A stretch of DNA of 64,000 bases. Origin: SAR324 cluster bacterium (GTDB taxonomy: Bacteria > SAR324 > NAC60-12). The stretch is taken from contig JADGAT010000012.1 of assembly GCA_015231885.1 (NCBI GenBank), positions 5,890 to 69,889 of the forward strand, given 5' to 3'. Shown in pieces: positions 11,758-58,500 of the stretch. The notes below the pieces were generated by a model. It saw nothing but the letters and a program-made list of their open reading frames with translations. It was not told the DNA's origin and did not search any database. Made by a program: the position numbers and the translations under genes. Each line of letters begins with the position of its first letter. Within the stretch, counting starts at the first letter, position 1.

Positions 11758-11936
11758 TTATCGAAAAAACTTTGAGTGATTCGTTAACTATATCAGATAA
11801 TTGAAGTTACCTGAGATGAAATATTCGAGGCCGTTGGTGGTGAAAGAACTTCAGAGTGGAAACAAAAATGAATCAAAGGAAAAAGTCGAGGAAGGATGAG
11901 CAATAGTTTTCTTAAATAGAGAAGAAAGCCCGCAGG

Positions 11937-42700: not shown

Positions 42701-45523
42701 GCCTACATTTCCATGATACTGGCTGCTGCTCAATTAACTTTTGAGAGAAATCAGTGTGTACTCCAAGATGTACTTTTTCCGAATATTCTGATGATTTCAG
42801 AAGAGCAGGGGTATCCAGTGCAGCTAGTGCTGACCCCACAGTCAGAAAACAAGGGATCTTTCAGACTGATTAGCCTGACTGGTCATGATTCTCCAAATGA
42901 GCAAAGCTGGAGTATTCATGCTTCAGGAAAAATACTCACTGAAGAAAAGAAAGCAAGCAATTCTTCTCCAATTGTCTCCTTAGAGGAATTAAAGGCGCAC
43001 TGCCCCCGGGAAATGACTGTTGAGGATATTTACGAGACGAGGCGCAAGGGGCATATCGAAATTGGACCGGGTTTTCAATGGCTTGAAAAAATGTGGTGCG
43101 GAGATGGGGAAGCTATCTGCCAGATATCCCCTCCGCGGATACTCGACCAACAGGCAGTTCATCAGCTCCATCCAGGGTTGATTGAAACAAGTTTTGCTAC
43201 TTTGGCTATCCTGCTCTCTTCGAAACCTTTTGAAACATGGGTCCCTTTCAGAATCGAAGAAATTCATTTTCATCACCTTCCTATCAAAACACCTCTCTGG
43301 GCACATGGGTCGCTAAAACAGAGAAAAGATCTTCCAGAAGATCGGCAGATAGGGGATATCCGATTATTTGATCAAACAGGAAGAGTTTTTCTCGAATTCA
43401 CAGGTCTTGAACTGGGAAAAAGCAGCAGGGAAACTTTACTGCAGGAACTTCAAAAAGACATTTCAAAGTGCTTGTATTGCAGCAACTGGCAAGTCGGTGA
43501 AAGAAAGGCAAAATCCATTGTTTCCGGAAAGGAATCTCGTTCATGGCTGATCTTTACAGATGAAGGTGGAATAGGAGAGCAACTGGCAGAACAGTTAAAA
43601 GAGCGAGGGGACGATTGCTTCCTAGTTTCTGCTGATAAATCTTATCAAAAACTGGAAAATCAATGCATTTTCCTTGATCCAGAACACCCTGAGGGCTTTC
43701 TAAAATTGATACGGGAACATTCAGGGAGTTCCCATTTTCATGGAGTGGTCTATCTCTGGAGTTTAGATGATGGATATATTTCACCAGACCAAAATCTGTC
43801 GGGAAATTCCAAGAGTTCCAGTCTGCCGGACCAATCGTTCATCGAAAACGCGCAAAAGCTTGGTTGGGGGGGTGTGTTATACCTCGTGCAAGCCTTAATC
43901 GGCACCGAAGAAAACAGTCTGCCCCGTTTGTGGATTGTCACCCGGGGGACACAACCGGTTACTGCACAGAATTCTCCGGTGCGTATCAATCATACCCCAT
44001 TATGGGGCTTGGGGAGAGTCATTCATCAGGAACACCCGGAGCTCTCCTGCGTGCTTCTGGACCTTGACCCTGGGAAAGATTCTGGGGAGGTTCAACGTCT
44101 TTTTGAAGAATTATACTCCCCTGATGGAGAAACTCAAATTGCTTTTCGCCAGGGAACTCGTCAAGTTGCCAGATTAGAACGCCACATCCTTTCAGTGCCA
44201 AAGAAGGTGAAAACTGAGGACACTGAAGCATCCGGTAAAAAAGCTTTGATTGATCCGGATAGCAGCTATTTAATTACAGGAGGTTGTGGGGGTTTGGGAC
44301 TCAAAGTAGCTCAGTGGATGGTGAAGCAGGGGGCTAGATATTTGGTTCTAATCAGTCGTCGGGGAAGGAATCGAAAGGAAGCTCTGAATGCTGCGGTTGA
44401 TCCTGAAAATTCTTCTGTTCCGGTCTCTGAAGAAGCAGAGGAAGTGATTCATCGCCTGGAAGAAGGAGGAACAAAAATTTTAGTCCTCCAGGGAGATGTC
44501 TCTGAGCAGAAAGAAGTGGCCCGGGTCCTGGAAGAGATTCCAAGTTCCATGCCTCCTTTGCGTGGAATCATTCATGCGGCCGGGGTGATCAATGATGGGA
44601 TTTTAATGAAGCAAGATCTGGAACGCTTTCATCAAGTCATGCTCCCCAAGGTTCAGGGGAGCTGGAACCTGCATATTTTAACTCAAAGACTCTCTTTAGA
44701 CTTTTTCGTATGTTTTTCATCTATTGCCTCGATGTTTGGTTCGGTCGGACAAGGAAACTATGCGGCTGGCAATGCTTTCATGGATGCGTTGATGCATTAT
44801 CGCCGGGCATTGGGACTGCCTGGGTTGAGCATCAACTGGGGTCCCTGGACAGAGGTCGGAATTGCCGCAAGCCTCGATCAGCGTGAACAGGATCGATGGG
44901 CAGAACAAGGATTGGGATCAATCACTCCTGAAAAAGGCGTTGAAATTCTGGAGAAGTTGCTTCAAGAGAAAACAGTTCAGGTTGCAGTTTTGCCGGTAAC
45001 CTGGTCAAAATTCCTTCATAAATTCTATAAAAATATTGATCTCCCGTTTCTGGAAAATTTTCACGAGACGAAACAGAAACCGGTTGTGCCGGAAAAGCTT
45101 CAATTGCTGATCCAGCTGGACGAAGCACCCGAAAAAGAACGGCGCGCTTTGCTGGAAGACTACATTCATCAGCAAATTGCTCGGGTCTTGGGAATGAAAT
45201 CATCTGAATCGATCTCGTCGCGTGAACGATTGTTTGACGCAGGTATGGATTCCCTAATGGCCGTTGAAATAAGAGACCGGCTAGAAACCAATCTCGGTTT
45301 TTCACTTCGCTCAACCCTCTTGTTTGATTATCCTACCGTAGAATCCCTTGTTGACTTTCTCGCCGAGAAAATTCCTTCTTTAAGGGATATCCCAAACAAA
45401 AGTTTGAAGCATCTCGAGCAAGAGGCGAAACATTTCGATAGTTTGGATGAATTATCCCAAGATCAAATTGCAGAACAGCTCGCAAAAGAATTACAAATGA
45501 TTCAGGAAGAGAAAAATAAATGA
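39734..45523 (+). CDS. Type I PKS module KS-AT-DH-KR-ACP
   Basis: ATGA overlap with the upstream stop. KS DTACSSSL / EAHGSGT / NFGHLEPAAG. AT GHSLGEF with an unusual YSSHS motif. DH HPLIDKK...LKDHLVFEQIIVPGSAY. KR SYLITGGCGGLGLKVAQW / YAAGNAF. ACP LFDAGMDSLMAVEI. N- and C-terminal coiled-coil docking tails. Confidence 0.95.
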   Translation: MRRTSASSTNAERMKRALQALEKMQAKLTAVEGSGTEPIAIVGMGCRFPGGADSLNSYWNLLQDGVDAITEIPPDRWDIDSYYDPDPETPGKMYGRHGGFFGPIDEFDASFFGISPREANSLDPQQRLVLEVGWEALENANQVPEQLFGSSTGVFIGVLSFEHALVMLEKQKIPQTDLHFTTGGSLAGIAGRLSYSLSVTGPSMVVDTACSSSLVAIHLACQSLRNRECNMALTGGVNLLLAPQWPISFSKGRLLAPDGRCKSFDAAADGYVRGDGCGLIVLKRFSDAKADGDRILALIRGASVNQDGASGGLTVPSGLSQEKVIQQALAISGVKPEQVGYIEAHGSGTPLGDPIEVNALGKVFCGQARPFPLTIGSVKTNFGHLEPAAGIAGLIKTVLALQNEAIPPHLHFKTPNPRIPWDRFDIEVPTTLKPWPQGETPRIAGISGFGFTGTNAHVVLEEAPKFGINKREEHPSINTRGQNPENQVERPWHLLTLSAKSEEALGKLVERYQELLEQQKSLNLANLCFTANTRRSHFKHRLSVVSSSCSDLKEELTAFLDKSDISDYSRKSSEKTGSPRVVFLFTGQGAHYVKMGYQLYQTQPTFRQSLDRCNEILRPYLEKPLLEVLYPYSPTSDLDNTAYTQPALFALEYALAKLLQHWGVMPSAVIGHSLGEFVAACIAGVFSLEDGLKLVAERGRLIRSLPSNGEMVAVRADEASVEEVLAPYSQSISIAAINGPENTVISGERIAVEKVCNDFEAKGIKATRLNIPYSSHSALVYPVLDEFAKVAETVAYSTPKINLISNVTGESAGGEIATPEYWVRHLRQPVRFASSIKTLHQQGYELFVEIGPKPVLSGMARQSLPQGDKVWLPSLREGHGDWEQLLKSLGELYVRRIPVDWLNFDQDYQRRQVALPTYPFQRQRYWLDAPTPDNYQGSQSIPPKLHPLIDKKMQSPLLKESVFETDFNCKSIPFLKDHLVFEQIIVPGSAYISMILAAAQLTFERNQCVLQDVLFPNILMISEEQGYPVQLVLTPQSENKGSFRLISLTGHDSPNEQSWSIHASGKILTEEKKASNSSPIVSLEELKAHCPREMTVEDIYETRRKGHIEIGPGFQWLEKMWCGDGEAICQISPPRILDQQAVHQLHPGLIETSFATLAILLSSKPFETWVPFRIEEIHFHHLPIKTPLWAHGSLKQRKDLPEDRQIGDIRLFDQTGRVFLEFTGLELGKSSRETLLQELQKDISKCLYCSNWQVGERKAKSIVSGKESRSWLIFTDEGGIGEQLAEQLKERGDDCFLVSADKSYQKLENQCIFLDPEHPEGFLKLIREHSGSSHFHGVVYLWSLDDGYISPDQNLSGNSKSSSLPDQSFIENAQKLGWGGVLYLVQALIGTEENSLPRLWIVTRGTQPVTAQNSPVRINHTPLWGLGRVIHQEHPELSCVLLDLDPGKDSGEVQRLFEELYSPDGETQIAFRQGTRQVARLERHILSVPKKVKTEDTEASGKKALIDPDSSYLITGGCGGLGLKVAQWMVKQGARYLVLISRRGRNRKEALNAAVDPENSSVPVSEEAEEVIHRLEEGGTKILVLQGDVSEQKEVARVLEEIPSSMPPLRGIIHAAGVINDGILMKQDLERFHQVMLPKVQGSWNLHILTQRLSLDFFVCFSSIASMFGSVGQGNYAAGNAFMDALMHYRRALGLPGLSINWGPWTEVGIAASLDQREQDRWAEQGLGSITPEKGVEILEKLLQEKTVQVAVLPVTWSKFLHKFYKNIDLPFLENFHETKQKPVVPEKLQLLIQLDEAPEKERRALLEDYIHQQIARVLGMKSSESISSRERLFDAGMDSLMAVEIRDRLETNLGFSLRSTLLFDYPTVESLVDFLAEKIPSLRDIPNKSLKHLEQEAKHFDSLDELSQDQIAEQLAKELQMIQEEKNK

Positions 45524-48500
45524 ATAGAAATTCATCGTCCCCTGACTCTCAAGCCCTCATGAAAAAGGCTTTGCTTGAGCTTCGAGAAATGAAAGGTCAG
45601 CTCAATCATGTCGAGTATGCTAAAAAGGAGCCTATCGCCATTATTGGAATAGGATGCCGGTTTCCTGGAGGATCCAATAGCCCGGACGCTTTTTGGTCAC
45701 TGTTGCGCGAAGGTCAGGATGCCATAAGGGAGATTCCTTCTGACCGGTGGGATATTGAGGAATACTTTAATCCGGAGCCGGATGTTCCCGGAAAGATGTA
45801 CACCCGTTACGGCGGATTTTTGGACTCTGTAGATTCCTTTGATGGTCCATTCTTTGGGCTTTCTCCCCGAGAAACAGTCAATACTGACCCGCAGCACCGT
45901 TTGATCCTGGAAGTTGCCTGGGAAGCTCTGGAGCATGCCAATCAAGTTCCAGAACAATTATTTGGCAGTGCTACCGGAGTCTTTGTTGGTATGACAACCT
46001 TCGACTATTCCATTTGTTTGGTAAAACAAGGAGTGGCCAATATTGACACTTATTTTGCCATAGGAAACGGATTCAATTCAGCTTCCGGGAGACTTTCCTA
46101 TCTCCTTGGATTGACTGGACCCAGCATGGCGATCGATTCTGCCTGTTCTTCCTCTTTAACGACAGTTCATTTGGCTTGTCAGAGTTTGCGCAACAGGGAA
46201 TGCAATCTCGCCCTGGCAGGGGGAGTTAATTTAATGATTACTCCGGAGATCAATATCAATTTTTCCCGCACTCAAATGCTGTCCCCAGATTGTCGTTGTC
46301 ATACTTTTGACGCGGCTGCCAATGGCTATGTGCGAGGTGAAGGCTGTGGAATGCTCGTCCTCAAACGCCTCTCCGATGCAAAAGCGGATGGCGATCAGAT
46401 TTTGGCTCTGGTTCGAGGATCGGCAGTGAATCAGGATGGTGCCAGCGGAGGGTTAACCGTTCCCAGTGGACCTTCCCAGGAAAAAGTTTTTCGTCAGGCT
46501 CTGGAAAATGCCGGGGTTGATCCAGGCCGGGTCAGTTATATCGAAACCCACGGCACTGGGACTCCTCTTGGAGATCCGATTGAGGTCAGTGCTATTGGAA
46601 ACGCCTATTGCGAAGCTCCCCGGGAATCACCTTTGATGATTGGTTCGGTAAAAACAAATATTGGCCATCTGGAAGCAGCTGCTGGGGTTGTTGGTATGAT
46701 CAAGGTTGTTCTCGCTCTCCAAAATGAAAAAATTCCACCCCATTTGAATTTTAAAGAACCCAATCCTCATATTCCCTGGGAGGAAATTCAAGTGGAAGTT
46801 CCCACTGAACTGAAAGAGTGGCCCCGAAGGGAAAATCCCAGATTGGCAGGAATCAGTGGATTTGGCATCAGTGGCAGCAATGCCCATATTATCATGGAGG
46901 AAGCACCTTTAGAAAATCATGAAAAATCAGAATTGGCGACACAAACACCTGGGAATAAAGTAGAACGTCCACTGCACATCTTGACCCTTTCGGCCAAGAC
47001 TGAAGAAGCCTTACGCCAGCTGACCGAACGCTACAAAACCCTCTTGAGTGAAAGGAGCGATATAGATTTGGCGGACCTTTGCTATACAGCGAACAAATAC
47101 CGGTCTCGCTTCAATCATCGCATGAGTGTGGTCAGTTCCTCATGTGCTGATTTAAAGAAACAATTGGCCGATTTTTCAGAAGGCAAGGAAATTCCGAAAT
47201 CAATCCAGGGTCCTTATAAAGGTCTGAGCCAACCGAAGGTTGCCTTTTTATTCACGGGGCAAGGGGCTCAATACATCAACATGGGACGTCAACTATACGA
47301 AACTCAGTCAAATTTCCGCCAAACGATGGACCGTTGCGATGAAATACTACGTCCCTGCCTTCAGAAAAGATTGCTGGAAGTTCTCTACCCTCAAGAGGGC
47401 TCACAATCTGATTCTTCTGAAATAAATGAGACGGCCTATACACAGCCGGCATTATTCTCTCTGGAATATGCGTTATTTGAATTGTGGAACTCCTGGGGAA
47501 TCAAACCATCGGCAGTGATGGGGCATAGCGTGGGGGAATATGCAGCTGCGTGTGCAGCAGGAGTCTTTTCTCTGGAAGATGGATTGAAATTAATTGCCGA
47601 GCGGGGACGGTTGATGCAAGCCTTACCCCGCAATGGAGAAATGGCCGTTGTATTTGCCAAAGAGTCCCTTGTGGAAGAAGCCATTAAGCCTTATTCTGAG
47701 AAGGTTTCCATTGCTGCAATCAATGGTCCCAAAAATGTTGTTATATCTGGAGATCAGCAAAGGATAGAGGCCCTTTGCTCTGAACTGGGAAATCAGGAGA
47801 TCAGGACAAAGCGTTTAACCGTTTCTCATGCGTTTCATTCACCCCTGATGGACCCTATGTTGGCTGATTTTGAACAAGTTGCCGGAAAGGTGACATATTC
47901 TGCTCCATTCCTGAGCCTGGTTTCCAACGTGACCGGAAATTTTGTGTCAGATGAGGTCACGACCCCTGAATACTGGGTCCGACACCTACGTCAGGCAGTC
48001 AGGTTTTCAAACAGCATCGAGACCCTTCACCAACAGGGTTTTAAAACTTTTTTAGAAATTGGCCCCAAACCCGTTCTTCTGGGAATGGCCCGGCATTGTT
48101 TATCAGAGGGTGAAGAAAAATGGCTGCCGAGCCTACGTGAAAACCAGGACTGGCAGCAGCTTCTATTCACCTTGGGGGAATTATCGGCACAAGGAGTCTC
48201 TGTCAGCTGGTCGGAGTTTGAAAATGGATATCAGCGTCGCCGGGTGACTCTTCCCTCCTATCCGTTTCAACATCAGCGATACTGGTATGAACCGGTTGAA
48301 TTGGAAAACAAACAAGTTGTCCGCAATCAAAACACCCGTAATCATTATACCCATCCTTTGCTGGGGCAGCGTCTGCTTTCCGCATTGAAAGAAATTCAAT
48401 ATGAATCCAGGCTTTATGCAGATTCCCCGGGGTTTTTAAAAGATCATCGGGTTTTTCAAAGTGTGATTTTTCCTGCTGCAGCCTATCTGGAAATAGCATT

Positions 48501-51207
48501 GGCGGCAGGGAAATCGGTATTTAATTCAGAGAAAATGATGGTTGAAAAGATGAGTTTTTTCCAGCCATTGATTTTGCAGGAGAACGGAGGCAGCCTGGTT
48601 CAGTGTATTTTATTTCCAGATAAGAAGGATAGGTATTCTTTACAGCTCTCCAGCCTTAGGGAGGATGAAGAAAATGAGGTCCCCGTCTGGAACAACCATG
48701 CTTCCGGATCCATACTGAGAAATGAGGAGACTTTGAAACCGGCGAAAATGGATATAAAGGTTTTGCAGAGCAAGCTCACCGAAGAATTATCCGGAGAGGA
48801 TTATTACCAGGATTTTTTAAATGCTGATATTGATTATGGTCCAAGCTTTCGGGTAAACGAGCACCTTTGGTTCTCTAAAGGGGAGGTGTTAAGCAAAATG
48901 TCTCTGCCGGAAAATCTGCTTGCAGAGGCAAAGAACTATTTTTTTCATCCGGTTTTGCTGGATTCTGCTTTCCAATTGGGTTTCCAATTGATTAGAAGCA
49001 CATTTCCTGACCTCGATCATCAGGATCCTTATTTACCCGTGTACCTGGAAAATCTCCAGGTCTTTTGCAGGCCGGAAGAACAGATGTGGGGACAGATTCA
49101 GATACAATCCGATGACGACCCTCAACCCCAGACGGTCAAGGCTAATCTGAATCTGCTTGATGCTACCGGTACACTGCTCGCTCACGTGAAAGGGCTCACT
49201 TTTCAACGTGTAAATCGCGATCTGCTTTTGGAGGGGGTGAAGAAAAATTTAGACAATTTTCTTTATGAATTTGACTGGCAACCTCTCCCTTTCGAAGAAT
49301 TCTCGAAGTCCTCAGAACCTGAAGAATCGGGATACTGGGTCATATTTTCGGAGACCGACGGCCTCGGAACAAATTTATCCTCTTTGCTGAAAGATCGTGG
49401 TGAACGTTGCCTTCTGGTTTTTCCGAGCCAAACCGGAACAATCGAGAAAACGGGAGAAACGGACTATTATCTCAATCCGGCAGAACCTTCCGGTTTTCAA
49501 CAATTGTTTCAAGATATCTTGGAAAATAAACCCTGCCGAGGAATTGTTCATCTTTGGAGCTTAAGCAAAAATCAGCAAGCAGACATCTCTCTTCTTTCGT
49601 TGCAGAAAAATCAGATCCTGGGTTGTAGAAGCGTACTGCATTTGGTTCAGGCCCTTGAATCCAGGGAATGGTCGGAACCGCCCCGCCTCTGGTTGATTAC
49701 ACAGGGAGCTCAGCCTGTTGGGGAAGATGTGATTCCTTTACAAGTTCAACAATCACCTTTATGGGGATTGGGCAATGTGATTGCCCTGGAATACCCGGAA
49801 CTTCGCTGTACGCGCCTTGATTTGGACCCTTCTCCTGATGCAAATGTGCTGCAGTCATTATACAATACCCTCTGGCATCAGAATCAGGAAGAGCAAGCGG
49901 CATGGCGGCAGGGTGTATGTTATGTCCCACGCTTGGCACGGTGTGCTTCTCATGAATCTGAACATGAACCGGTTAAGATTTCAAATGCGGACTTTTCATC
50001 AGTTGATTTGCAATCGAAAATCTCCTCTGAAGGGACTTATTTGATCAGCGGAGGTTTGGGAGACCTGGGCTTATTGACCGCGGAATGGATGGTCAAGGAA
50101 GGAGCGAGGCATTTAGTGTTGGTAGGAAGAAGCCGGGTGAAACCTGAGGCCGGGAAAGTGATTGAAGAATTAGGGGGAAAAGGAATTGAAATCAGCGTGA
50201 TGCAGGGAGATATTTCTCTCGAAGATGATGTAAAAGGGATTCTGGAAGAAATTCAAAGTACCATGCCTTCCTTGAAAGGAGTTATTCATGCGGCGGGAGT
50301 ACTCGACGATGGAATGATAGCTCAGCAAAATTGGGAGCGATTTGAAAAAGTAATGCGGCCCAAAATCAATGGTGCCTGGAATTTACATCGGTTGACTGAA
50401 AACATCCCCCTTGATTTTTTCCTTATGTTTTCCTCGGCAGCATCTGTATTGGGAACCCTTGGACAAAGCAATTATGCTTCCGCCAATGCTTTCCTCGATG
50501 CTCTGGCTCACTATCGAAGAGCAAACGGACTTCCGGCTGCCTCAATCAATTGGGGGCCCTGGGCTGAAATTGGTATGGCTTCTCAAGAAGGAAATCAAAA
50601 AAACCGTTTTTCCAGCCAGGGGGTACAAAGTCTCAAACCTGAAGAAGGTTTGATTGTTCTCAAAAGAATTCTTCGTGACAATATTACTCAACCCTGTGTG
50701 ATTCACATTGAATGGTCCCAATTTATAAATAATGTGCCACACGAACGAAAATCAGGAATTTATTCAGATATAATTTCTGAAATTCAGAATAGCGGGATAG
50801 ATACAGATTCTGAAGCACAATCGGAAATTATCAGAAGTCTGAATGAAGCGATGTTTGGAGAGCGCCCACAGATGCTGCTTTCCTTTATTCAAGACCTGGC
50901 AGGAAATGTGATTGGAGAATCTCATTCTCTTCCTGAAGATGTTCCCTTAATGGAGCAAGGGTTTGATTCTCTGATGGCTGTTGATTTGAAAAACAGATTA
51001 AATAAGGCAATGAACACTAATTTACCGTCATCGTTGCTTTTTGAGTATCCAACATTGGAAAAAATAACAAATTTTCTGTTGGAAGAAATTCTTTCCTTTG
51101 AAGATCTGGATTTTGTTGATGATAATGGTGGAGAGGAAGGGGAGGACAATTCAGCTGAGGCGCTTTTAGAAGAAATAGATACTTTGTTACAGACACAGAA
51201 CAATTGA
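45520..51207 (+). CDS. Type I PKS module KS-AT-DH-KR-ACP
   Basis: ATGA overlap. KS DSACSSSL / ETHGTGT / NIGHLEAAAG. AT GHSVGEY and VSHAFHS (malonyl-type). DH HPLLGQ...LKDHRVFQSVIFPAAAY. KR TYLISGGLGDLGLLTAEW / YASANAF. ACP LMEQGFDSLMAVDL. Acidic C-terminal docking tail. Confidence 0.95.
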   Translation: MNRNSSSPDSQALMKKALLELREMKGQLNHVEYAKKEPIAIIGIGCRFPGGSNSPDAFWSLLREGQDAIREIPSDRWDIEEYFNPEPDVPGKMYTRYGGFLDSVDSFDGPFFGLSPRETVNTDPQHRLILEVAWEALEHANQVPEQLFGSATGVFVGMTTFDYSICLVKQGVANIDTYFAIGNGFNSASGRLSYLLGLTGPSMAIDSACSSSLTTVHLACQSLRNRECNLALAGGVNLMITPEININFSRTQMLSPDCRCHTFDAAANGYVRGEGCGMLVLKRLSDAKADGDQILALVRGSAVNQDGASGGLTVPSGPSQEKVFRQALENAGVDPGRVSYIETHGTGTPLGDPIEVSAIGNAYCEAPRESPLMIGSVKTNIGHLEAAAGVVGMIKVVLALQNEKIPPHLNFKEPNPHIPWEEIQVEVPTELKEWPRRENPRLAGISGFGISGSNAHIIMEEAPLENHEKSELATQTPGNKVERPLHILTLSAKTEEALRQLTERYKTLLSERSDIDLADLCYTANKYRSRFNHRMSVVSSSCADLKKQLADFSEGKEIPKSIQGPYKGLSQPKVAFLFTGQGAQYINMGRQLYETQSNFRQTMDRCDEILRPCLQKRLLEVLYPQEGSQSDSSEINETAYTQPALFSLEYALFELWNSWGIKPSAVMGHSVGEYAAACAAGVFSLEDGLKLIAERGRLMQALPRNGEMAVVFAKESLVEEAIKPYSEKVSIAAINGPKNVVISGDQQRIEALCSELGNQEIRTKRLTVSHAFHSPLMDPMLADFEQVAGKVTYSAPFLSLVSNVTGNFVSDEVTTPEYWVRHLRQAVRFSNSIETLHQQGFKTFLEIGPKPVLLGMARHCLSEGEEKWLPSLRENQDWQQLLFTLGELSAQGVSVSWSEFENGYQRRRVTLPSYPFQHQRYWYEPVELENKQVVRNQNTRNHYTHPLLGQRLLSALKEIQYESRLYADSPGFLKDHRVFQSVIFPAAAYLEIALAAGKSVFNSEKMMVEKMSFFQPLILQENGGSLVQCILFPDKKDRYSLQLSSLREDEENEVPVWNNHASGSILRNEETLKPAKMDIKVLQSKLTEELSGEDYYQDFLNADIDYGPSFRVNEHLWFSKGEVLSKMSLPENLLAEAKNYFFHPVLLDSAFQLGFQLIRSTFPDLDHQDPYLPVYLENLQVFCRPEEQMWGQIQIQSDDDPQPQTVKANLNLLDATGTLLAHVKGLTFQRVNRDLLLEGVKKNLDNFLYEFDWQPLPFEEFSKSSEPEESGYWVIFSETDGLGTNLSSLLKDRGERCLLVFPSQTGTIEKTGETDYYLNPAEPSGFQQLFQDILENKPCRGIVHLWSLSKNQQADISLLSLQKNQILGCRSVLHLVQALESREWSEPPRLWLITQGAQPVGEDVIPLQVQQSPLWGLGNVIALEYPELRCTRLDLDPSPDANVLQSLYNTLWHQNQEEQAAWRQGVCYVPRLARCASHESEHEPVKISNADFSSVDLQSKISSEGTYLISGGLGDLGLLTAEWMVKEGARHLVLVGRSRVKPEAGKVIEELGGKGIEISVMQGDISLEDDVKGILEEIQSTMPSLKGVIHAAGVLDDGMIAQQNWERFEKVMRPKINGAWNLHRLTENIPLDFFLMFSSAASVLGTLGQSNYASANAFLDALAHYRRANGLPAASINWGPWAEIGMASQEGNQKNRFSSQGVQSLKPEEGLIVLKRILRDNITQPCVIHIEWSQFINNVPHERKSGIYSDIISEIQNSGIDTDSEAQSEIIRSLNEAMFGERPQMLLSFIQDLAGNVIGESHSLPEDVPLMEQGFDSLMAVDLKNRLNKAMNTNLPSSLLFEYPTLEKITNFLLEEILSFEDLDFVDDNGGEEGEDNSAEALLEEIDTLLQTQNN

Positions 51208-51212
51208 GCAGT

Positions 51213-52259
51213 ATGAATACTAAACTTAGCGGTGTGGCGATTCGCTCTATAGCGACCGCTGTTCCCAAACAAGATTTTGATTTGACAGAACTTTACGGGG
51301 TTTATGGTACAGATGATGTTGACCGAATCATGGCGTTGAATGGAATTACCCATATTCGAACAGCTCCGGAAGGCATGTGTAGCTCTGATTTCTGCGAAGC
51401 AGCAGCTCGATTGATTATGGCGGAAGAAAGTACTGCCAATATTGATGGGATTGTTTTTGTCTCTCAGACCCCGGATTATATTTTGCCGGCTACCAGTGCA
51501 GTTCTTCAGCATCGCTTAGGGCTCTCCAAAGACACGGTTATTTTCGACCTCAACAGTGGTTGTCCGGGCTACATTTATGGCCTCTATCAAGCTTCATTAC
51601 TGGTAGCTTCAGGCGCTTGTACTTCAGTGCTGGTTTGTGTCGGAGATGTGATTACCCGATATGTAAACCAGCTGGATCGCTCTTCCCAGATGGTATTTGG
51701 CGATGGAGGAAGCGCAACTTTGGTGGAGCGTGGCTCCGGAGAAATTGCATTCGGGTTCAGAACAGACGGATCGGGGGGAAAACATTTGATTATTCCTGCA
51801 GGAGGATGTCGCCACCCGATCACTGAGGATACGGGGATGGTATCTGTGCAGAGCGACGGTAACATGCGCTCTGATGAAGATATTTTCATGGATGGGCTGG
51901 AGGTGATGAACTATGCAGTAAGAGAAGTCCCCCCTATTATTGAAAAGCTGCTTGAGCAGATGGGTTGGCAGCAGTCGGAAGTGGGAACATTTGGTTTTCA
52001 TCAGGCCAACCGATTTATGCTTGATAACTTAAGAAAAATTATGAGGCTTCCCAAAGACAAGGTTCCTGTCACAATGGAGAAATTGGGGAATACCGGTTCT
52101 GCTTCTATTCCTCTGATGCTGGCTGAGGAGCGTGAGCGGCTTTCAACAGAAAATAGATTGGAAAAATCAATTCTGTGCGGGTTTGGTGTCGGTATGTCCT
52201 GCTCGGCAGCCGCGTTGGATCTTTCTCAAACTAAAATCTGGGATTTTCTCGAAATTTAG
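51213..52259 (+). CDS. KAS III (FabH-like) ketosynthase or acyltransferase
   Basis: ATG at 51213 (MNTKLSGVAIRSIATAVPK, a FabH-type start); the track TTG is at 51204. Active-site context DLNSGCPGY. HQANRFM. GNTGSASIP. Confidence 0.85.
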   Translation: MNTKLSGVAIRSIATAVPKQDFDLTELYGVYGTDDVDRIMALNGITHIRTAPEGMCSSDFCEAAARLIMAEESTANIDGIVFVSQTPDYILPATSAVLQHRLGLSKDTVIFDLNSGCPGYIYGLYQASLLVASGACTSVLVCVGDVITRYVNQLDRSSQMVFGDGGSATLVERGSGEIAFGFRTDGSGGKHLIIPAGGCRHPITEDTGMVSVQSDGNMRSDEDIFMDGLEVMNYAVREVPPIIEKLLEQMGWQQSEVGTFGFHQANRFMLDNLRKIMRLPKDKVPVTMEKLGNTGSASIPLMLAEERERLSTENRLEKSILCGFGVGMSCSAAALDLSQTKIWDFLEI

Positions 52260-52284
52260 CAATAATTTGATAGTCAATATAGGT

Positions 52285-53148
52285 ATGTATTTCCCTGATT
52301 TTCTCTTCCGGAAGATCACACTTCCTTTTTTGAAAAAGAGCAGCATCCTGTTACGAGGAATTATCAACATCCAGTCTGAAGCTTTGAAATGGATGGATTT
52401 GTCTTCAAGCTTGCTGGAATTTGTTCCGCGCCCGCAAGATATTTTTATCGTCACGTACCCAAGATCCGGAACCACCTTGATGCAGATGATGCTCTACCAA
52501 TTGAGCACGGGTGGAAAGATCGATTTTTCCCACATAAACGAAGTAGTTCCCTTCTTCGACCGACTTTTGACTTATCAAATTCAAAGTGTGCAAGATCTTG
52601 ATAATTTGCCTAATCCTCGAATTTTTAAAAGCCATTTGAGTTACCAGAATGTCCCGAAAGGCCCATGTCGATACATTTACATAGAAAGAAACGGGAAAGA
52701 TGTGGCAGTTTCATATTTTCATTTTCATGTCTCGCATCTCGGATTTCAGGGCACTTTTGATGAATTTTTCGATCTATTCATGAAAGGGAGGGTGATGTAT
52801 GGTTCATGGTTCAGGCACATTGCAGAATGGCAGAAACATCAGGATGATCCTCATGTATTATATCTCAAATATGAAGATCTCAAAAAAGATCTCAAAACAG
52901 CTCTGTATCAGATAATCGATTTTTGCCAGTTGGATGTTCCTCAAGTACACATGCCAAAAATTATCAGGCAATGCAGCTTTGAGTTCATGAAAGAGCATGA
53001 AAATAAGTTTGACCATATTTCCGGAATGGTTTGGGAGAAAGGCTATCAAAAAAATGCATTCATCCGGGAAGGCCGGATTGGAAGCGGGACACAGCTGTTA
53101 ACGCCTGCTCAAATAGAGCTCTTTGAGCGAACATATTCACAAATATAA
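52285..53148 (+). CDS. Cytosolic-type (SULT-family) PAPS-dependent sulfotransferase
   Basis: 5'-PSB loop TYPRSGTT. 3'-PB motif RNGKDVAVSYFHF. The start is uncertain: Met at 52285 (preferred, just after the FabH-like stop) or 52393. The track start at 52132 overlaps the upstream gene and was rejected. Confidence 0.75.
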   Translation: MYFPDFLFRKITLPFLKKSSILLRGIINIQSEALKWMDLSSSLLEFVPRPQDIFIVTYPRSGTTLMQMMLYQLSTGGKIDFSHINEVVPFFDRLLTYQIQSVQDLDNLPNPRIFKSHLSYQNVPKGPCRYIYIERNGKDVAVSYFHFHVSHLGFQGTFDEFFDLFMKGRVMYGSWFRHIAEWQKHQDDPHVLYLKYEDLKKDLKTALYQIIDFCQLDVPQVHMPKIIRQCSFEFMKEHENKFDHISGMVWEKGYQKNAFIREGRIGSGTQLLTPAQIELFERTYSQI

Positions 53149-53150
53149 AA

Positions 53151-53459
53151 ATGGAGAAAGTTGTCCTCATGCATGAAAAAATCGTGGATATCATTGTTGG
53201 AGAATCGAAAGAAGTGAATAAAAAACTGAAAAACAAAATTTCTGTAGAACTAAGGGAAGCGGCCCCGCTTTTTGGGGAAAACGGAATTTTGGATTCGATC
53301 GCCTTAGTCACATTACTGGTTGCTGTCGAACAATCAGTGGAAGACGAATTCGATTTTCCTGTAATTTTGGCAGATGAAAAAGCAATGTCCCAAAAAAACA
53401 GTCCATACCAATCGATTGGTGCATTAGCCCAATATGTGGGCAGCCTGTTGAAGGAATAA
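53151..53459 (+). CDS. Stand-alone acyl carrier protein
   Basis: 102 aa. Phosphopantetheine-attachment context GILDSIALVTLL. Acidic helix II. Confidence 0.8.
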   Translation: MEKVVLMHEKIVDIIVGESKEVNKKLKNKISVELREAAPLFGENGILDSIALVTLLVAVEQSVEDEFDFPVILADEKAMSQKNSPYQSIGALAQYVGSLLKE

Positions 53460-53463
53460 GCTC

Positions 53464-54168
53464 ATGGAAAACCTTCCATTAGTCATGATTACCGGAACAA
53501 GAAAAGGGATTGGAAAATATCTCGCTCACTATTATGTAGAAAAAGGGTTTCAGGTCATTGGCTGCAGTCGTAGTTCGGTTGATTATGAACTGGCAAATTA
53601 CCAACATTTTTGTCTTGATGTTATAAATGAATTTGCAGTGAAAAAAATGTTTATTGATGTTCGCCGAACGCATGGACGTTTAGACGTATTGATCAACAAT
53701 GCGGGGATTGCCTCTATGAATCATGTGCTGTCAACCCCGATGAACACTGTACGCAAGATTTTTGATACCAATGTGGCAGGAACTTTTCTGTTTTGCCGGG
53801 AAGCTGCAAAATTGATGCAAATTAAGCAGTACGGGCGCATTGTCAATTTTTCTACGGTAGCCACCCCTTTGAAACTCGAAGGAGAGGCGGTCTATGCTGC
53901 CTCAAAAGCCGCGATTATTACGCTTACCGAAATTTTGGCAAGGGAATTAGCTCCCTTGGGAATCACAGTCAATGCGGTGGGGCCGACTCCGGTGGAAACC
54001 GATTTGATTCGTTCAGTTCCCCAGGAAAAAATTGATAATCTGCTCTCACGACAGGCGATCTCGAGACTGGGAAAATTTGAGGATATTGCCAATGTAATAG
54101 ATTTTTTCATTCAAGAAAAAAGTGAATTTGTGACAGGACAGAACATTTACCTGGGCGGAGTTTCGTGA
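53464..54168 (+). CDS. Short-chain dehydrogenase/reductase (FabG-like 3-oxoacyl-ACP reductase family)
   Basis: TGTRKGIGK (TGxxxGxG). NNAG. Catalytic YAASK (YxxxK). 234 aa. Confidence 0.85.
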   Translation: MENLPLVMITGTRKGIGKYLAHYYVEKGFQVIGCSRSSVDYELANYQHFCLDVINEFAVKKMFIDVRRTHGRLDVLINNAGIASMNHVLSTPMNTVRKIFDTNVAGTFLFCREAAKLMQIKQYGRIVNFSTVATPLKLEGEAVYAASKAAIITLTEILARELAPLGITVNAVGPTPVETDLIRSVPQEKIDNLLSRQAISRLGKFEDIANVIDFFIQEKSEFVTGQNIYLGGVS

Positions 54169-55505
54169 GGATTGAGGAATTACAACAAAGATTGGAGCAA
54201 TATTCCGAGATTGAAGCAATTATCCATAAGCACCAGCTCTTTTCCTATAGGGACCTTCTCAGATTGACTGAGTCGTGGTTTCAACGTTTAGCGCAAAACA
54301 AGATTGAACCCGGAACCGTTGTAGCAGTAACGTCAGATTATTCTGCAGATGCAATTGCCTTGATGGCTGCATTGATTCTCAATAAAAACATTGCAGTCCC
54401 TTTGACTCCGTTAGCAAAAACTCAATTCAATGAATATTTTAAAACTTCATATACCCAGTCAATCATTGATTTAACCCAAACCACATTCCGCATTTCTGAC
54501 AGGAAGAATGACCCCTTGCAAAACGATCTGCTCAGGAACTTGATTGAACAGCAGCACCCGGGGTTGATCCTTTTTACCTCCGGTTCTACTGGACAAGCAA
54601 AGGCGGTTGTTCATGATTTTGAAAAACTACTAACAAAATTTACTCATGCGAATAAAGGATACAGAAGCCTCGTTTTCCTGATGTTTGACCATATTGCAGG
54701 AATCGATTCGTATTTTTACTCTCTTTATAGCGGAGGAACGATGATCTTTCCTGTTTCGAGGCTTCCCAAAGAAATCTGCGGCCTCATTGAAAAACACAGA
54801 GTTGAAGTCCTGCCCGCATCGCCCACTTTTCTCAATCTGCTGCTGCTTTCAGGAGAACATCTAAGACACGATCTCGATTCTCTGAAAATAATCACTTTCG
54901 GTTCAGAAAGGGCCCCTCAATCCTTGTTAAAACGCTTGAAAAACAATTTTCCTCAAGTCAGGCTGGTACAAAAATATGGTCTGACAGAATTAGGGTCTCC
55001 TTCTTCCAAATCGATGGAAGCAGACGCCTCGTGGTTAAAAATCGACAGTCCTCGCTTCAAAACAAAAATTATTAACAAAAGGCTGCATATCAAATCAGAT
55101 GCTGCCATGCTGGGGTATCTCAACGCTCCGGATCCATTTACCGGAGACGGTTGGTTTGATACAGGAGACACCGTCGAAGTGAAGGGAGAATATCTTCGCA
55201 TACTTGGCAGAGAGTCAGAGATCATCAACGTGGGAGGAGAAAAGGTTTTTCCAGTGGAAGTGGAAGAAGTGATTCAGATGATGCCGGGGGTCGAAGATGT
55301 GGTGGTCAGCGGAGTTCCTTATCCAATCACAGGACAAATTGTTAAAGCTTCCGTCCAGCTCGAGACCAAGGAAACTCTTTCAGAATTTCGCCAGAGGATG
55401 CGGGATTTCTGTGAAGAAAAATTACCTCGTTTTAAGATTCCTCAGAAAGTAACTTTGGCTAAAGATTCGTTGCATGGCGATCGATTTAAAAAAATGAGAG
55501 GATAA
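54165..55505 (+). CDS. Short AMP-dependent ligase (acyl-CoA/acyl-ACP synthetase-like adenylating enzyme)
   Basis: GTG start overlapping the SDR stop (GTGA). FTSGSTGQAKAV, YGLTELG, GDGWFDTGD, GRESEIINVGGEKVFPVEVE. The last motif is the acyl-CoA-synthetase-type A8, not the NRPS-type. Confidence 0.8.
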   Translation: MRIEELQQRLEQYSEIEAIIHKHQLFSYRDLLRLTESWFQRLAQNKIEPGTVVAVTSDYSADAIALMAALILNKNIAVPLTPLAKTQFNEYFKTSYTQSIIDLTQTTFRISDRKNDPLQNDLLRNLIEQQHPGLILFTSGSTGQAKAVVHDFEKLLTKFTHANKGYRSLVFLMFDHIAGIDSYFYSLYSGGTMIFPVSRLPKEICGLIEKHRVEVLPASPTFLNLLLLSGEHLRHDLDSLKIITFGSERAPQSLLKRLKNNFPQVRLVQKYGLTELGSPSSKSMEADASWLKIDSPRFKTKIINKRLHIKSDAAMLGYLNAPDPFTGDGWFDTGDTVEVKGEYLRILGRESEIINVGGEKVFPVEVEEVIQMMPGVEDVVVSGVPYPITGQIVKASVQLETKETLSEFRQRMRDFCEEKLPRFKIPQKVTLAKDSLHGDRFKKMRG

Positions 55506-55517
55506 AGAAAGGATTTC

Positions 55518-58500
55518 ATGTTTGATAAAAAAAACGTCAAAAACATTTATGCACTCACTCCCATGCAGGAAGGAATGCTGTTCTTTGCGTTGTACGACAA
55601 CACTTCGCTAGCATATTTTGAACAGGTTTTTTATCATATTTCTGGAAAATTATATGTTGAATTCTTTGAAAAGACCTGGAATGAATTGATCCATCGTCAT
55701 GATATTCTTAGAACCATTTTCGTCTATAAAAATGTTCCTCAACCCTTGCAGATCGTTTTAAAGCAACGCAAAATTAGTGTTCATTTTGTCGATCTGCAGG
55801 CGCTTTCCCCGGAAGAACAGGAAGCTCACTGCCGGCAGTATAAAGAAAAAGATCAACACACCCCTTTTGATCTGAGTAAAGATCCCTTAATGCGGTTTGC
55901 GTTGTTTCAGTTAGGGGAAACTTCCTACAATCTGGTCTGGAGCTGTCATCACATTTTGCTCGATGGTTGGAGTGTCAGTCTCCTCTACAAAGAATTTTTT
56001 TCCATCTACGAGGCATTGCATCAGGGACAGTCAGTCTTTCTCCCTCCACCCGTGCCTTTCAGCAAGTATCTGACCTGGCTCAATAAGCAGGACAAAAACG
56101 AAGCAAAACGTTACTGGCAAACCTATTTACAGGGGTACCATCAGCGGGCGGCTTTCCCGCAATTTCCTTCAAATTTCGATGCGGGTGAAACCCCACTCCC
56201 TGTTCCTGAGAATTTTACTTTTCAAATGACGGAAGCATTGACTTCGGGATTAAATGAACTGGCATTCCGCAATCATGTGACGCTCAATACGGTTTTTGTG
56301 ACGTTATGGGGAATTCTCCTGGGAGTCTACAATAATCTCAATGATGTTGTTTTTGGGGCTGCCGTTTCGGGACGTCCCGCTGGGATTGAGGGGATCGAAG
56401 ACATTGTGGGCTTGTTCATCAATACGATTCCAGTACGCGTGAGAAAAGAATCAGGGCAAACGTTTAAAGAATTGCTTCAAATTGTGCAGAAAGAAGCTGC
56501 ACAGGGGAAAGAATATCATTATACCTCATTGGTTGATATCATGATGGAAACTCCGTTGAAACAAAGTTTGTTTGATCATATTCTTATTTTTGAAAATTTT
56601 CCCTCATTAGAAAACGCACAAGAAGGTGCAAATAATCCCTTCGTGGTGGATCGTTTTGAGCAATTTGAACTCACCAGTTATGACCTCTCCATTCAAGTTT
56701 TTCCCGGAAAAAATCTGGAATTCGTCATCATTTACCAACCGGCAGTATACAATCGCGAGGTGATCGAATGCCTGAAACCTCATCTCACATTGATGCTGGA
56801 ATCTGTTTTAGAAAACGAATCTCTGGAATTGCAGGACCTGAGTGTCCTTTCAGATGATGAAGAAAAATTTTACCATGAAGTCAGAAAAGCCTTGCCTGTC
56901 GAAGATGAGATTCACCGAAAAATTTTTACAGCTTATTCGCCTCCTGAAAATGAACAACAGAATACACTGCTCTCGATCTGGAAGGAATTGCTCAATCTAG
57001 AAGATGTGGGCATTGATGACAACTATTTTGAATTGGGCGGCCACAGCCTGCTTGCCACTCGCATTGTCTCTAAAATTCACAAATCTTTAAAAATTGAAAT
57101 CAGTTTAAGAGAATTTTTTAACAACCCGAATATCAGAGCTCTTGACAAAATTATAAATCAAAAAAATCTCAAAGAATACGCCGAAATCACCGCACTTCCC
57201 CAGCATCCCCATTATCCTGTTTCTCATGCTCAGCGGCGACTTTGGATTCTGGAACAAATGCAGGGAGAAGCAGCCGCTTACAATATGTCCGGCGCTGTTT
57301 CGATGGCTGGCGATCTCAATCTGGCCGCCTTTCAAAAGGCTTTTCAAACGCTTGTAAATCGCCACGACTCCTTACGCACAACATTTGTTAGTATTGATAG
57401 TGAACCAAGGCAAAAGGTCTGTGCAGATATTGACCTCACCATAGAAATGCTGGACTTGAGCGCGGAGGAAGGCTCTGAAGAGAAAGCAAGGGAATTTATT
57501 CGCAAAGACGCCAACAGGCTTTTTGATCTGGAAAAAGGACCCTTGCTGCAGGCCTCTCTTCTCAAGCTTGCTGATCGCAAATATATTTTTGTTTTTAACA
57601 TTCATCACATTATTGGAGATGGCTGGTCTTTTGGTATTCTTGTTAAAGAAATTTTTTGTTTGTATGATGCTTTTTTGAAAGGACAGCAAAACCCTCTACC
57701 TTCTCTTCGTATTCAATATAAGGACTATACCGCTTGGCAAAATGAGTTATTGGAAAGCAAAAACATCGCCCCTCACCGAGAATACTGGCTTCAAAAATTG
57801 TCAGGAGAATTGCCTATACTGGAGCTTCCCACAGACTTCCCCCGTCCTGCGAAGATGACTTATCACGGACGTAAACTCAGTTTTACCCTGGCCCCGGGTC
57901 TGGCTGATGCGTTCAACCAGGTTTGCCGATCAAATCAAGCCAGTCTGTTCATGGGCCTGCTCAGTATAGTAAAAATTTTACTATACCGTTACTCCTCTCA
58001 GGAGGATATCATTGTCGGATCTCCAATTGCCGGGAGAAATCACCCGGATTTGGAAGATCAAATCGGTTTTTATGTGAACACCCTGGCTCTGCGTGATCAG
58101 ATCAATAGCAATGATACGTTTCTGGGGCTCCTGCAAAAGATAAAACAAACTACAATTGAGGCATTTGATCATCAGGATTATCCTTTTGATAAGTTGGTGG
58201 ACGAATTGAATGTTCCTCGATTTACAGATCGCTCTCCTTTATTTGATGTGATGGTCGTTTTACAAAACCAGGATTTCGAGGAGATCGGATTGAGCGGTGT
58301 TCACATCATTCCTTTTGCCGAAGAAAGCAGCAGTAGCCGATTTGATCTGACATTAAACTTTGCAGAAACAGATTCTACTATACAGGCGGAAATTGAATAT
58401 CGGACGGATTTATTCACAGCAGCAGGAATTCATCGTTTGTGGGGGCATTTTGAATCGCTTGTAGACGCTGCACTTAAATCTCCCGAAGAGAAAATTGGCA

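Follow-up and report, generated by a model that had tools for sequence, protein, structure and literature searches.

Modules that lack an adenylation (A) domain are a main way in which nonribosomal peptide synthetase (NRPS) assembly lines break colinearity, and they defeat automated structure prediction. In legonmycin biosynthesis, the NRPS LgnD has the domain order C1-T1-C2-A2-T2-TE (C, condensation; T, carrier; TE, thioesterase), LgnB is an A1-T0 protein, and the type II thioesterase (TEII) LgnA moves Thr from T0 to T1 (PMC8748450). Module 7 of WS9326A (C-T-C-A-T), with WS22/WS23 and WS5/WS20, is proposed to work like legonmycin (PMC8748450). LgnD/LgnB/LgnA and WS9326A module 7 are the closest precedents for the locus described here, which lies in a 64,000-nucleotide stretch of DNA from a SAR324 cluster bacterium (GenBank assembly GCA_015231885.1, contig JADGAT010000012.1, positions 5,890 to 69,889; hereafter the window, to which coordinates refer unless a relative is named). 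The element in question is an A-less C1-T1 module at the start of the NRPS encoded at 55518, directly downstream of genes for a free acyl carrier protein (ACP), a ketoreductase (KR) and an adenylating ligase. We tentatively propose that these genes, together with a β-ketoacyl-ACP synthase III (KAS III), provide the A-less module with a short hydroxyacyl unit.

Several other systems form the background to this comparison. In yersiniabactin biosynthesis (HMWP2/HMWP1), an A-less C-T/Cy-T module is loaded by the A domain of another module. The shuttles of syringomycin (SyrB1/SyrC) and coronamic acid (CmaA/CmaE/CmaD) biosynthesis use an aminoacyltransferase of the α/β-hydrolase type with a Cys nucleophile. 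In the daptomycin system (DptE/DptF), a free ACP is charged by a separate ligase and then donates its acyl group to the starter C domain of a Cs-A-T module. The SyrB1/SyrC and CmaA/CmaE/CmaD shuttling is summarized in PMC8748450. Outside peptide biosynthesis, the group II flagellin glycosylation islands of Aeromonas contain the gene series pseH-ACP-reductase-AMP synthetase-luxE-luxC, in which the ACP-reductase-AMP synthetase triad (orf1-3) has been drawn but not characterized (PMC7874193).

Results

The 55518 NRPS begins with an A-less C-T module

The NRPS is divided as follows (E, epimerization; PCP, peptidyl carrier protein).

55518-56852, + strand: C1, condensation domain of the DCL type, with a COM-acceptor-like helix, MFDKKNVKNIYALTPMQEGMLFF, at its N-terminus (Pfam Condensation)
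56853-56942, + strand: linker of about 30 residues at the position of an A domain (aa 446-475)
56943-57161, + strand: T1, a PCP-type carrier with the motif LGGHSL, Ser510 at nt 57045-57047 and no cognate A domain (Pfam PP-binding, aa 483-542)
57195-61667, + strand: C2 (LCL-like)-A (Tyr, DASTIAAVCK)-T2 (GGDSI)-E (HHLLVDGISW, aa 1743)

Pfam finds three Condensation stretches in the 2050-residue protein, two PP-binding stretches (the best at aa 483-542) and a single AMP-binding stretch (aa 1028-1370), within an A domain that spans aa 1028-1505. A preliminary description, made from the sequence alone, had read the start of this protein as C-PCP-C with no A domain, and the motifs it quoted are all present: LTPMQEGMLFF (aa 13-23, nt 55554-55586) and the catalytic HHILLDGWS (aa 144-152, nt 55947-55973) in C1, and YFELGGHSLLATRIVSKI (aa 503-520, nt 57024-57077) in T1. 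The motif HHIIGDGWS of C2 starts at aa 696. The absence of an A domain is confirmed: the one AMP-binding stretch lies elsewhere in the protein, only the linker separates C1 from T1, and a six-frame motif scan places A3/A8 motifs in the five known A domains and nowhere near 56800-57200. A cryptic A domain between C1 and T1 is ruled out by Pfam and the six-frame scan together.

The module has the two marks of an A-less elongation module, an intact HHxxxDG and a carrier serine that follows the C domain directly with no A domain between. The T1 residues G507, G508, S510 and L511 are invariant in six homologues, as is HHxxxDG in C1. The linker contains the sequence RKALPVED, which resembles the tail that follows motif A10, and a more distant homologue (L085) retains about 200 residues of the C-terminal subdomain of an A domain at the linker position. 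Because of this tail and this remnant, C1-T1 most likely lost its A domain by deletion.

C1 is predicted to receive a D-Thr-terminated chain

The candidate donor module is encoded further upstream.

26636-32254, + strand: C remnant, A (Thr code, with a radical-SAM/B12 insert), T (GGDSI), E, and the COM donor tail TPSDIDYDGLNIEELEEVLDSLP

The best solved relatives of C1 are the N-terminal C domains of TycB (2e-132), BacC (1.5e-113) and SrfA-C (2.5e-110), which receive a D-residue from an E-terminated partner, whereas the LCL domain of TycC matches C1 at 1e-47 only. This similarity to post-E C domains, together with an E-terminated partner that carries a COM donor tail, places C1 in the DCL type. 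The N-terminus of C1, MFDKKNVKNIYALTPMQEGMLFF, is what we take to be a docking helix of the TycB/SrfA-C type. On the donor side, the 26636 protein ends in T (GGDSI)-E followed by TPSDIDYDGL..., and the E-terminated NRPS upstream of the orthologue in L093 (introduced below) ends in TPHDIDYDGLDIDGLDTLLNNL, the same COM donor tail behind an A domain with another code (DLYNNALTYK). The A-domain codes of the window are DILQLGVI-K (Gly-like) and DALWFGGTFK (Val-like) in the 15955 protein, DFWNIGMVCK (Thr) in the 26636 protein and DASTIAAVCK (Tyr) in the 55518 protein. C1 is thus predicted to dock onto the E-terminated Thr module, and a chain ending in D-Thr, possibly methylated, is supported as its donor. 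The position of the A-less module between Thr and Tyr, as had been proposed earlier for this cluster, follows from the DCL type of C1, the docking pair and the A-domain codes. A role for C1 as a starter or lipoinitiation C domain with an acyl-ACP donor was considered and rejected, given its DCL type and a conserved COM-acceptor N-terminus that matches the upstream donor tail.

The Thr-type A domain of the donor module is interrupted: an insert of about 570 residues (about 27740-29470) with a Radical_SAM (aa 436-597) and a B12-binding (aa 776-887) domain lies between its motifs A2 and A3. The same split architecture recurs in two further loci, L083 and L084, with 40% identity and a different A code. 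The literature searched contains no link between interrupted A domains and a radical-SAM insert; two papers do no more than mention both terms. The radical-SAM-split A domain may be an undescribed type, perhaps for C-methylation. The segment in front of it (26636-27355) comprises about 240 residues of the C-terminal half of a C domain with no HHxxxDG; a complete C domain is already present at the end of the protein before it, and the segment looks like a remnant of a gene split.

The A-less module and an upstream cassette recur together

The NRPS gene is preceded by five genes, four of which (KAS III, ACP, KR and ligase, with the sulfotransferase as a variable fifth) are referred to below as the cassette (PAPS, 3′-phosphoadenosine-5′-phosphosulfate; ORF, open reading frame).

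51204-52259, + strand: KAS III (Pfam)
52285-53148, + strand: PAPS-type sulfotransferase, probable start ATG at 52285, mechanical ORF start at 52132 (Pfam Sulfotransfer_1)
53151-53459, + strand: free-standing ACP of 102 residues, motif LDSI, Ser at 53295-53297
53464-54168, + strand: FabG-type KR (Pfam)
54165-55505, + strand: acyl-CoA-synthetase-type adenylating ligase of 446 residues (Pfam AMP-binding and AMP-binding_C)
55518-61670, + strand: NRPS of 2050 residues, C-T-C-A(Tyr)-T-E (Pfam)

An initial metagenome scan with a single protein gave no matches. C1-T1(-C2) starts with no A domain were found in seven other assemblies, with 47-68% identity over C1-T1: another SAR324 metagenome-assembled genome (L001), metagenome contigs (L081, L086 and L087), Desulfobacteraceae IS3 (L082), Desulfobacterales HSG2 (L091) and Ca. 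Magnetomorum (L093). The full C-T-C-A(Tyr)-T-E protein is present in L086, L087, L091 and L093. The recurrence of one architecture in seven other assemblies rules out a frameshift or an assembly artefact. The orthologues all keep HHxxxDG, the carrier Ser and the first 15 residues, and the four full-length relatives also keep the Tyr code DASTIAAVCK; because the catalytic residues, the N-terminus and the Tyr code are so well kept, we judge that C1-T1 is not a relic. At its other end (60351-61670), the NRPS of the window stops straight after E, with no TE, reductase or COM donor tail. The NRPSs of L086, L087, L091 and L093 likewise end right after E, and in L093 a polyketide synthase (PKS) that opens with a ketosynthase (KS) comes next.

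Genes for the ACP, the KR and the ligase lie upstream of the NRPS on the same strand in 7/7 orthologous loci with visible upstream DNA, and KAS III is present in 6/7. The locus with no visible KAS III is L091, where AAA_21 insertions occupy the upstream space. The gap between ligase and NRPS genes is 0 to about 25 nt in the window, L081, L082 and L093, and holds 1-7 kb of unrelated inserted genes in L086, L091 and L001. Insertions into the cassette or the gap (L001 11425-16589; L081 1638-3310; L086 3941-4557; L091 3385-8640 and 11379-13372) consist of Uma2, S74 peptidase chaperone, AAA_21/AAA_15 ATPase and PDDEXK_9 genes and small paired ORFs. The cassette-NRPS unit seems to tolerate insertions and to sit in plastic regions. 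The linkage is asymmetric, since the NRPS was never seen without the cassette and the cassette was seen without the NRPS (L092, L094 and L095, below). Such asymmetry is expected if the cassette supplies what the A-less module cannot obtain itself.

The same loci bear on the possibility that an NRPS A domain acts twice, so that T1 is charged either in cis by the Tyr A domain or by that of the upstream module, while the cassette makes a pendant acyl group (optionally sulfated) or serves elsewhere. Modules of HMWP2 and AmbB/AmbE are further cases of A-less modules loaded by trans or iterative use of an A domain. Such use is documented for CmnI with CmnA-A1 (PMC12400406). The A-less and Tyr modules are fused in all eight loci, and the Tyr code is common to the four full-length relatives. 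In L083 and L084, an A-less DCL-T comes right after the radical-SAM-split A-T-E, with no cassette within 10 kb, and the optional occurrence of the sulfotransferase suggests that the cassette product retains a free hydroxyl. An A domain acting twice would, however, leave the strict co-occurrence of cassette and NRPS (7/7 loci) with no necessary role. The NRPS-linked loci also have no acyltransferase (GNAT, hexapeptide-repeat or extra C domain) for a pendant acyl group, whereas glycan loci have one, and the specificity of the upstream A domain varies (Thr code in the window, DLYNNALTYK in L093) while the cassette is constant. Double use of an A domain is in our view rather unlikely.

The ligase most likely acts on the free ACP

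The nearest solved relatives of the ligase are FadD13, 4-chlorobenzoate-CoA ligase (CBAL), MenE and malonyl-CoA synthetase, not amino-acid A domains, and it scores under the cut-off of every NCBIfam model. Motifs A3, A4 (FDHIAG), A5, A7 and A8 and a C-terminal RFKK are conserved in 13 members of the ligase family from all contexts; the conserved stretches are GLILFTSGSTG, FDHIAG, QKYGLTE, DGWFDTGD, GRESEIINVGGEKV and RFKK. The A3/A5/A7/A8 motifs, the A10 Lys and an A4 of the form xHxxG, where amino-acid A domains have FDxS with Asp235, are those of ANL enzymes of the acyl-CoA-synthetase type, with a tentative assignment of position 235 (weak alignment), and the ligase is predicted to be such an enzyme. 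An amino-acid (DltA-like) activator, which the invariant FD in A4 brought to mind, is unlikely; the motif fits the acyl-CoA-synthetase-type xHxxG better, and the nearest structures are acyl-CoA ligases.

Relatives of the ligase occur well beyond NRPS clusters. Seventy-two genome loci have a ligase of 33-47% identity, and almost all of them contain ACP, KR (53-66%) and ligase in the same order, with KAS III nearby in about one third. The ACP-KR-ligase triad was found in about 80 related loci, about 70 of them glycan loci and the others NRPS-linked, PKS-linked or stand-alone; a C1-T1-like NRPS was not detectable in the fetched flanks of at least 75 of the roughly 80. The two glycan loci examined in detail, L015 (Aliarcobacter) and L065 (Chitinophaga), are polysaccharide/nonulosonic-acid loci with DegT aminotransferases, NeuB, and FeeM-like or PglD-like N-acyltransferases. 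Closer cassette relatives outside NRPS clusters are the following.

L092 (Poribacteria), ligase 59%, KR 73% identical: DegT-ACP-KR-ligase-hexapeptide acyltransferase-glycosyltransferase
L094, ligase 60%, KR 75% identical: sulfotransferase-KAS III-ACP-KR-ligase, with no PKS or NRPS within 10 kb
L095, ligase 58%, KR 70% identical: ACP-KR-ligase-sulfotransferase-carbamoyltransferase, then a KS-first PKS

The KR is 70-80% identical in clade-I cassettes linked to NRPS (L001, L093), stand-alone (L094), PKS (L095) or sugar (L092) settings, 65% identical in L082 and L086, and 53-66% in other glycan loci. Ligases (58-60%) and KRs (70-75%) from non-NRPS settings are as close to those of the window as NRPS-linked ones are and carry the same motifs, so that the two enzymes appear not to be specialized for T1. 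The A5 segment that lines the pocket, QKYG(V/L)TELGSP, is common to the ligases of L092, L094 and L095 and to most NRPS-linked ones. Because this segment is shared across contexts, ligase and KR most likely catalyze identical reactions on the free ACP wherever they occur, with only the consumer of the acyl-ACP (sugar amine, KS or NRPS) changing.

The free ACP has no Pfam or PDB match. In nearly all of the roughly 80 loci, however, a conserved ACP gene immediately precedes that of the KR, and every NRPS-linked locus has kept it. No similarity was detectable between T1 (a GGHSL PCP) and the free ACP (LDSI).

These comparisons also speak to the proposal that the adjacent ligase acylates T1 directly, and possibly the free ACP as well, as a detached A domain. 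In its favor, the ligase gene ends just 12 nt before the NRPS gene in the window, the ligase has all catalytic motifs, and trans loading of NRPS carriers by free-standing adenylating enzymes is well known. Direct loading sits poorly with an ACP-KR-ligase order that is kept in about 80 loci, most with no detectable C1-T1-like NRPS, with the 1-7 kb insertions that part ligase from NRPS in relatives, with the retention of the free ACP in every NRPS-linked locus and with the lack of detectable similarity between the two carriers. We regard it as highly unlikely. Since the ligase always ends the ACP-KR-ligase triad, also where no NRPS is present, its partner is most likely the free ACP and not T1, and its adjacency to the NRPS would follow from the gene order inside the cassette.

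The KAS III is of the FabH condensing type, with the triad Cys120-His266-Asn296. These residues are intact in all 27 homologues wherever the aligned fragment covers them; the L081 and L082 fragments do not cover the Cys. The variable gene of the cassette is the sulfotransferase in the window and L001 and SBP_bac_3 in L082, and is missing in L081, L086 and L093. Sulfotransferase orthologues with 54-62% identity accompany the cassette in L001, L094 (6946-7806) and L095 (2641-3540). The sulfotransferase thus also accompanies the cassette where no peptide is made, and it probably acts on the cassette product.

Cluster organization and the polyketide part

One large hybrid PKS/NRPS cluster spans about 16 kb to 63.7 kb of the window. 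Its other members, with a TEII outside it, are listed here (AT, acyltransferase; DH, dehydratase; PPTase, phosphopantetheinyl transferase).

2958-3734, − strand: TEII with the motif GHSMG
15955-26601: KS-AT-C-A-T-C-A-T-C protein
26636-32254, + strand: C remnant-A-T-E protein
35889-39737: A-KR-ACP loader
39722-45523 and 45520-51207: two KS-AT-DH-KR-ACP modules
61696-62898: HGD-D-like gene
62955-63740: HetI-type PPTase

The genes from 45520 to 61670 overlap or lie a few bases apart and are for this reason taken as one operon. In the 15955 protein, a coiled linker of about 90 residues (aa 920-1010, about nt 18715-18985) joins KS-AT directly to C. Phmmer searches with six carrier queries matched only the two downstream T domains of this protein, and no carrier between KS-AT and C. 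From this layout, the PKS module is predicted to have to borrow a carrier, either the ACP of the preceding PKS or the free ACP at 53151.

This raises the possibility that cassette and ACP serve the polyketide part, either the KS-AT of the 15955 protein or an Ols/CurM-like extend-reduce-sulfonate unit after the PKS at 45520-51207, with C1-T1 being loaded from outside the window or acting as a non-elongating relay. Besides the KS-AT with no carrier before C, a 4-nt overlap of the PKS and KAS III genes in the window and L001 and a cassette that directly precedes a KS-first PKS in L095 are in line with such service. The ligase, ACP, KS-type enzyme, KR and sulfotransferase presumably mirror the Ols/CurM domain set in discrete form. 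The PKS-KAS III adjacency is, however, limited to two SAR324 loci, and in L093 a β-lactamase gene precedes KAS III; the linkage of cassette and NRPS, in contrast, persists in loci of very different make-up. Off-loading of the CurM/Ols type is not indicated, as the Sulfotransfer_1 gene is accompanied by no fused or adjacent TE and is absent from most NRPS-linked loci. We consider service to the polyketide part improbable.

Candidates for transfer between the free ACP and T1 were sought among the proteins of the window. Only the TEII at 2958-3734 is a candidate for an adaptor that, like LgnA, moves a unit between carriers; its gene is 50 kb distant and has no homologue in the flanks of the related loci. 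KAS III differs from the acyl shuttles ChlB3 and CerJ, which have a Cys-His-Asp triad (PMC9573744), in that its third triad residue is Asn, not Asp. The α/β-hydrolase at 32324-33472 was rejected as a SyrC-like shuttle on account of its N-terminal membrane segment and Ser nucleophile. For the β-lactamase-family gene at 4272-5606, a SurE-like role in releasing a D-terminated peptide in the cytosol comes to mind but is doubtful, since the protein has a lipoprotein-type signal.

The remaining genes of the window add several observations. β-Lactamase/penicillin-binding-protein-family genes lie near the cluster in the window (4272-5606) and inside it in L093 (4835-6661), with 27% identity. The single HGD-D/HadB-like 2-hydroxyacyl-CoA dehydratase subunit (61696-62898) is sited between NRPS and PPTase; no partner subunit or activator is present in the window, and no such gene was found after the orthologous NRPS in L086 or L093. 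The A-KR-ACP loader (35889-39737) has an architecture typical of α-keto-acid activation followed by reduction to an α-hydroxy-acid starter, and its A domain has no clear equivalent of Asp235 (weak code alignment, score 180). The window contains four DUF697 genes (437-958, − strand; 1282-1773; 14912-15736; 35115-35870), two of which directly precede the first genes of both biosynthetic blocks (15955 and 35889). In L094 a DUF697 gene follows the cassette (11572-12075), and a Band_7 gene is present in both the window and L094.

Discussion

A tentative reading of these data, and the one we favor, is that the cassette builds a short β-hydroxyacyl unit on the free ACP and passes it to T1, making C1-T1 a working elongation module with a supply line in trans. 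That C1-T1 is functional and loaded in trans can be held with much higher confidence than the full mechanism. Domain order, DCL type, the docking pair, intact catalytic residues in C1, T1, ligase and KAS III, and the comparative linkage are observations, from which we infer the chemical steps. The ligase (54165) would adenylate a small carboxylic acid and load it onto the free ACP (53151), not onto T1. KAS III (51204) would extend the acyl unit by two malonyl-derived carbons, and the FabG-type KR (53464) would reduce the 3-keto intermediate to a short 3-hydroxyacyl-ACP, which the cassette-linked sulfotransferase may modify in this genome. Thiol transfer from ACP to T1 could occur through a TEII-type adaptor as in LgnA or by spontaneous transthiolation, or the ACP might be used directly at the acceptor site of C1. 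C1 would then join the D-Thr-terminated chain to the nucleophile of the unit, forming an ester if this is the 3-OH, and C2 would hand the product to Tyr with formation of an amide. The product most likely has a non-amino-acid unit between D-Thr and D-Tyr, and this unit most likely comes by way of the free ACP, not from the ligase loading the PCP directly.

Several results count against this proposal. No enzyme for transfer from ACP to T1 was identified, no homologue of the TEII was present in the available flanks of related loci, and use of KAS III as a ChlB3-like ACP-to-T1 shuttle is weakened by its intact Cys-His-Asn triad (PMC9573744). In L094 and L095, where no peptide is made, the cassette also comes with a sulfotransferase orthologue. 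If the sulfotransferase sulfates the 3-OH, this group cannot also be the ester nucleophile for C1. To avoid this conflict, the unit would need another hydroxyl, or the sulfotransferase a different target within the cluster. The free ACP could in fact serve the ACP-less KS-AT of the 15955 protein instead. Finally, no cassette lies within 10 kb of the A-less DCL-T of L083/L084, which comes straight after an A-T-E module with a radical-SAM-split A domain, and the remote A-less DCL-T of L085 adjoins a CmlA-like hydroxylase and an A-T didomain. As these contexts differ from the cassette loci, A-less DCL-T modules would be served by different trans systems.

The preliminary description is partly supported by this analysis. 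Its placement of the unit between Thr and Tyr agrees with the codes DFWNIGMVCK and DASTIAAVCK, the DCL-type C1 and the docking pair. The 446-residue enzyme it placed upstream is an acyl-CoA-synthetase-type ligase by its AMP-binding and AMP-binding_C domains and its FadD13/CBAL/MenE relatives, which makes the suggested non-amino-acid unit plausible, and the free ACP, KAS III and KR genes are real. It had named the ligase, the free ACP/KAS III system or another A domain acting twice as possible loaders of the PCP. Loading by the adjacent ligase finds no favor, given a triad that occurs without the NRPS, the 1-7 kb insertions in relatives and a free ACP that is always kept. Comparative data favor the free ACP/KAS III system, while an A domain acting twice stays as a rival, if an unlikely one.

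A broader interpretation, which we put forward as doubtful, is that a type II fatty acid synthase-like mini-pathway (ligase, ACP, KAS III, KR and, in some loci, sulfotransferase) was recruited from glycan acylation. It would act as a dedicated β-hydroxy(sulfo)acyl extender that is inserted mid-chain via the A-less DCL-T, with a depsi-bond made by the DCL C domain, and would constitute a portable X-D-Tyr cassette across SAR324, Desulfobacterales and multicellular magnetotactic bacteria. In place of an amino-acid A domain or an A-T didomain, the missing loader here seems to be a four-gene carboxylic-acid pathway that otherwise decorates sugars. If true, this would give a rule to predict a non-amino-acid unit at such positions and a first functional handle on the widespread, uncharacterized ACP-KR-ligase triad of flagellin and O-antigen loci. 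For peptide engineering, the cassette plus C-T would also be a compact, naturally portable means of introducing hydroxy-acid units. The producers belong to uncultivated lineages (SAR324, Desulfobacterales and Ca. Magnetomorum) from which almost no natural products are known. In the literature searched, no paper describes the pairing of cassette and NRPS, the cassette or these clusters as a characterized system.

LgnD and WS9326A module 7 share with the 55518 NRPS the C-T-C-A-T order and the need to bring to T1, in trans, a building block activated on another carrier. Among the differences, C1 here is not a starter C domain but a DCL domain inside the line, fed by an E module, and C2 here is an ordinary LCL-like domain, not a dehydrating one. 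The window contains no stand-alone A-T didomain; in place of LgnB, the loader consists of an acyl-CoA-synthetase-type ligase with a discrete ACP, KAS III and KR, which indicates carboxylic-acid chemistry and an ancestry in glycan acylation. Unlike in legonmycin, no LgnA-like TEII is adjacent.

The SyrB1/SyrC and Cma systems resemble the present one in that a block is tailored on a stand-alone carrier and moved to an A-less assembly-line carrier, but no Cys-nucleophile α/β-hydrolase aminoacyltransferase of the SyrC/CmaE type was found here. Capreomycin CmnI/CmnA-A1 likewise provides a functional A-less C-T module (PMC12400406). CmnI and HMWP2/HMWP1 have no dedicated ligase/ACP/KAS III/KR cassette, whereas here one is linked in every locus with visible upstream DNA. 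DptE/DptF differs in that its acyl-ACP feeds a starter C domain. Here, C1 lies within the line, belongs to the DCL type and has a peptidyl donor of its own; the carrier with no A domain is on the acceptor side. The triad of glycan loci consists of the same three genes in the same order, with 53-73% identity for the KR and 37-59% for the ligase. There it adjoins sugar aminotransferases, NeuB/Pse, and GNAT or hexapeptide N-acyltransferases; in the window such sugar-pathway neighbors are absent, and the triad adjoins an A-less NRPS module instead.

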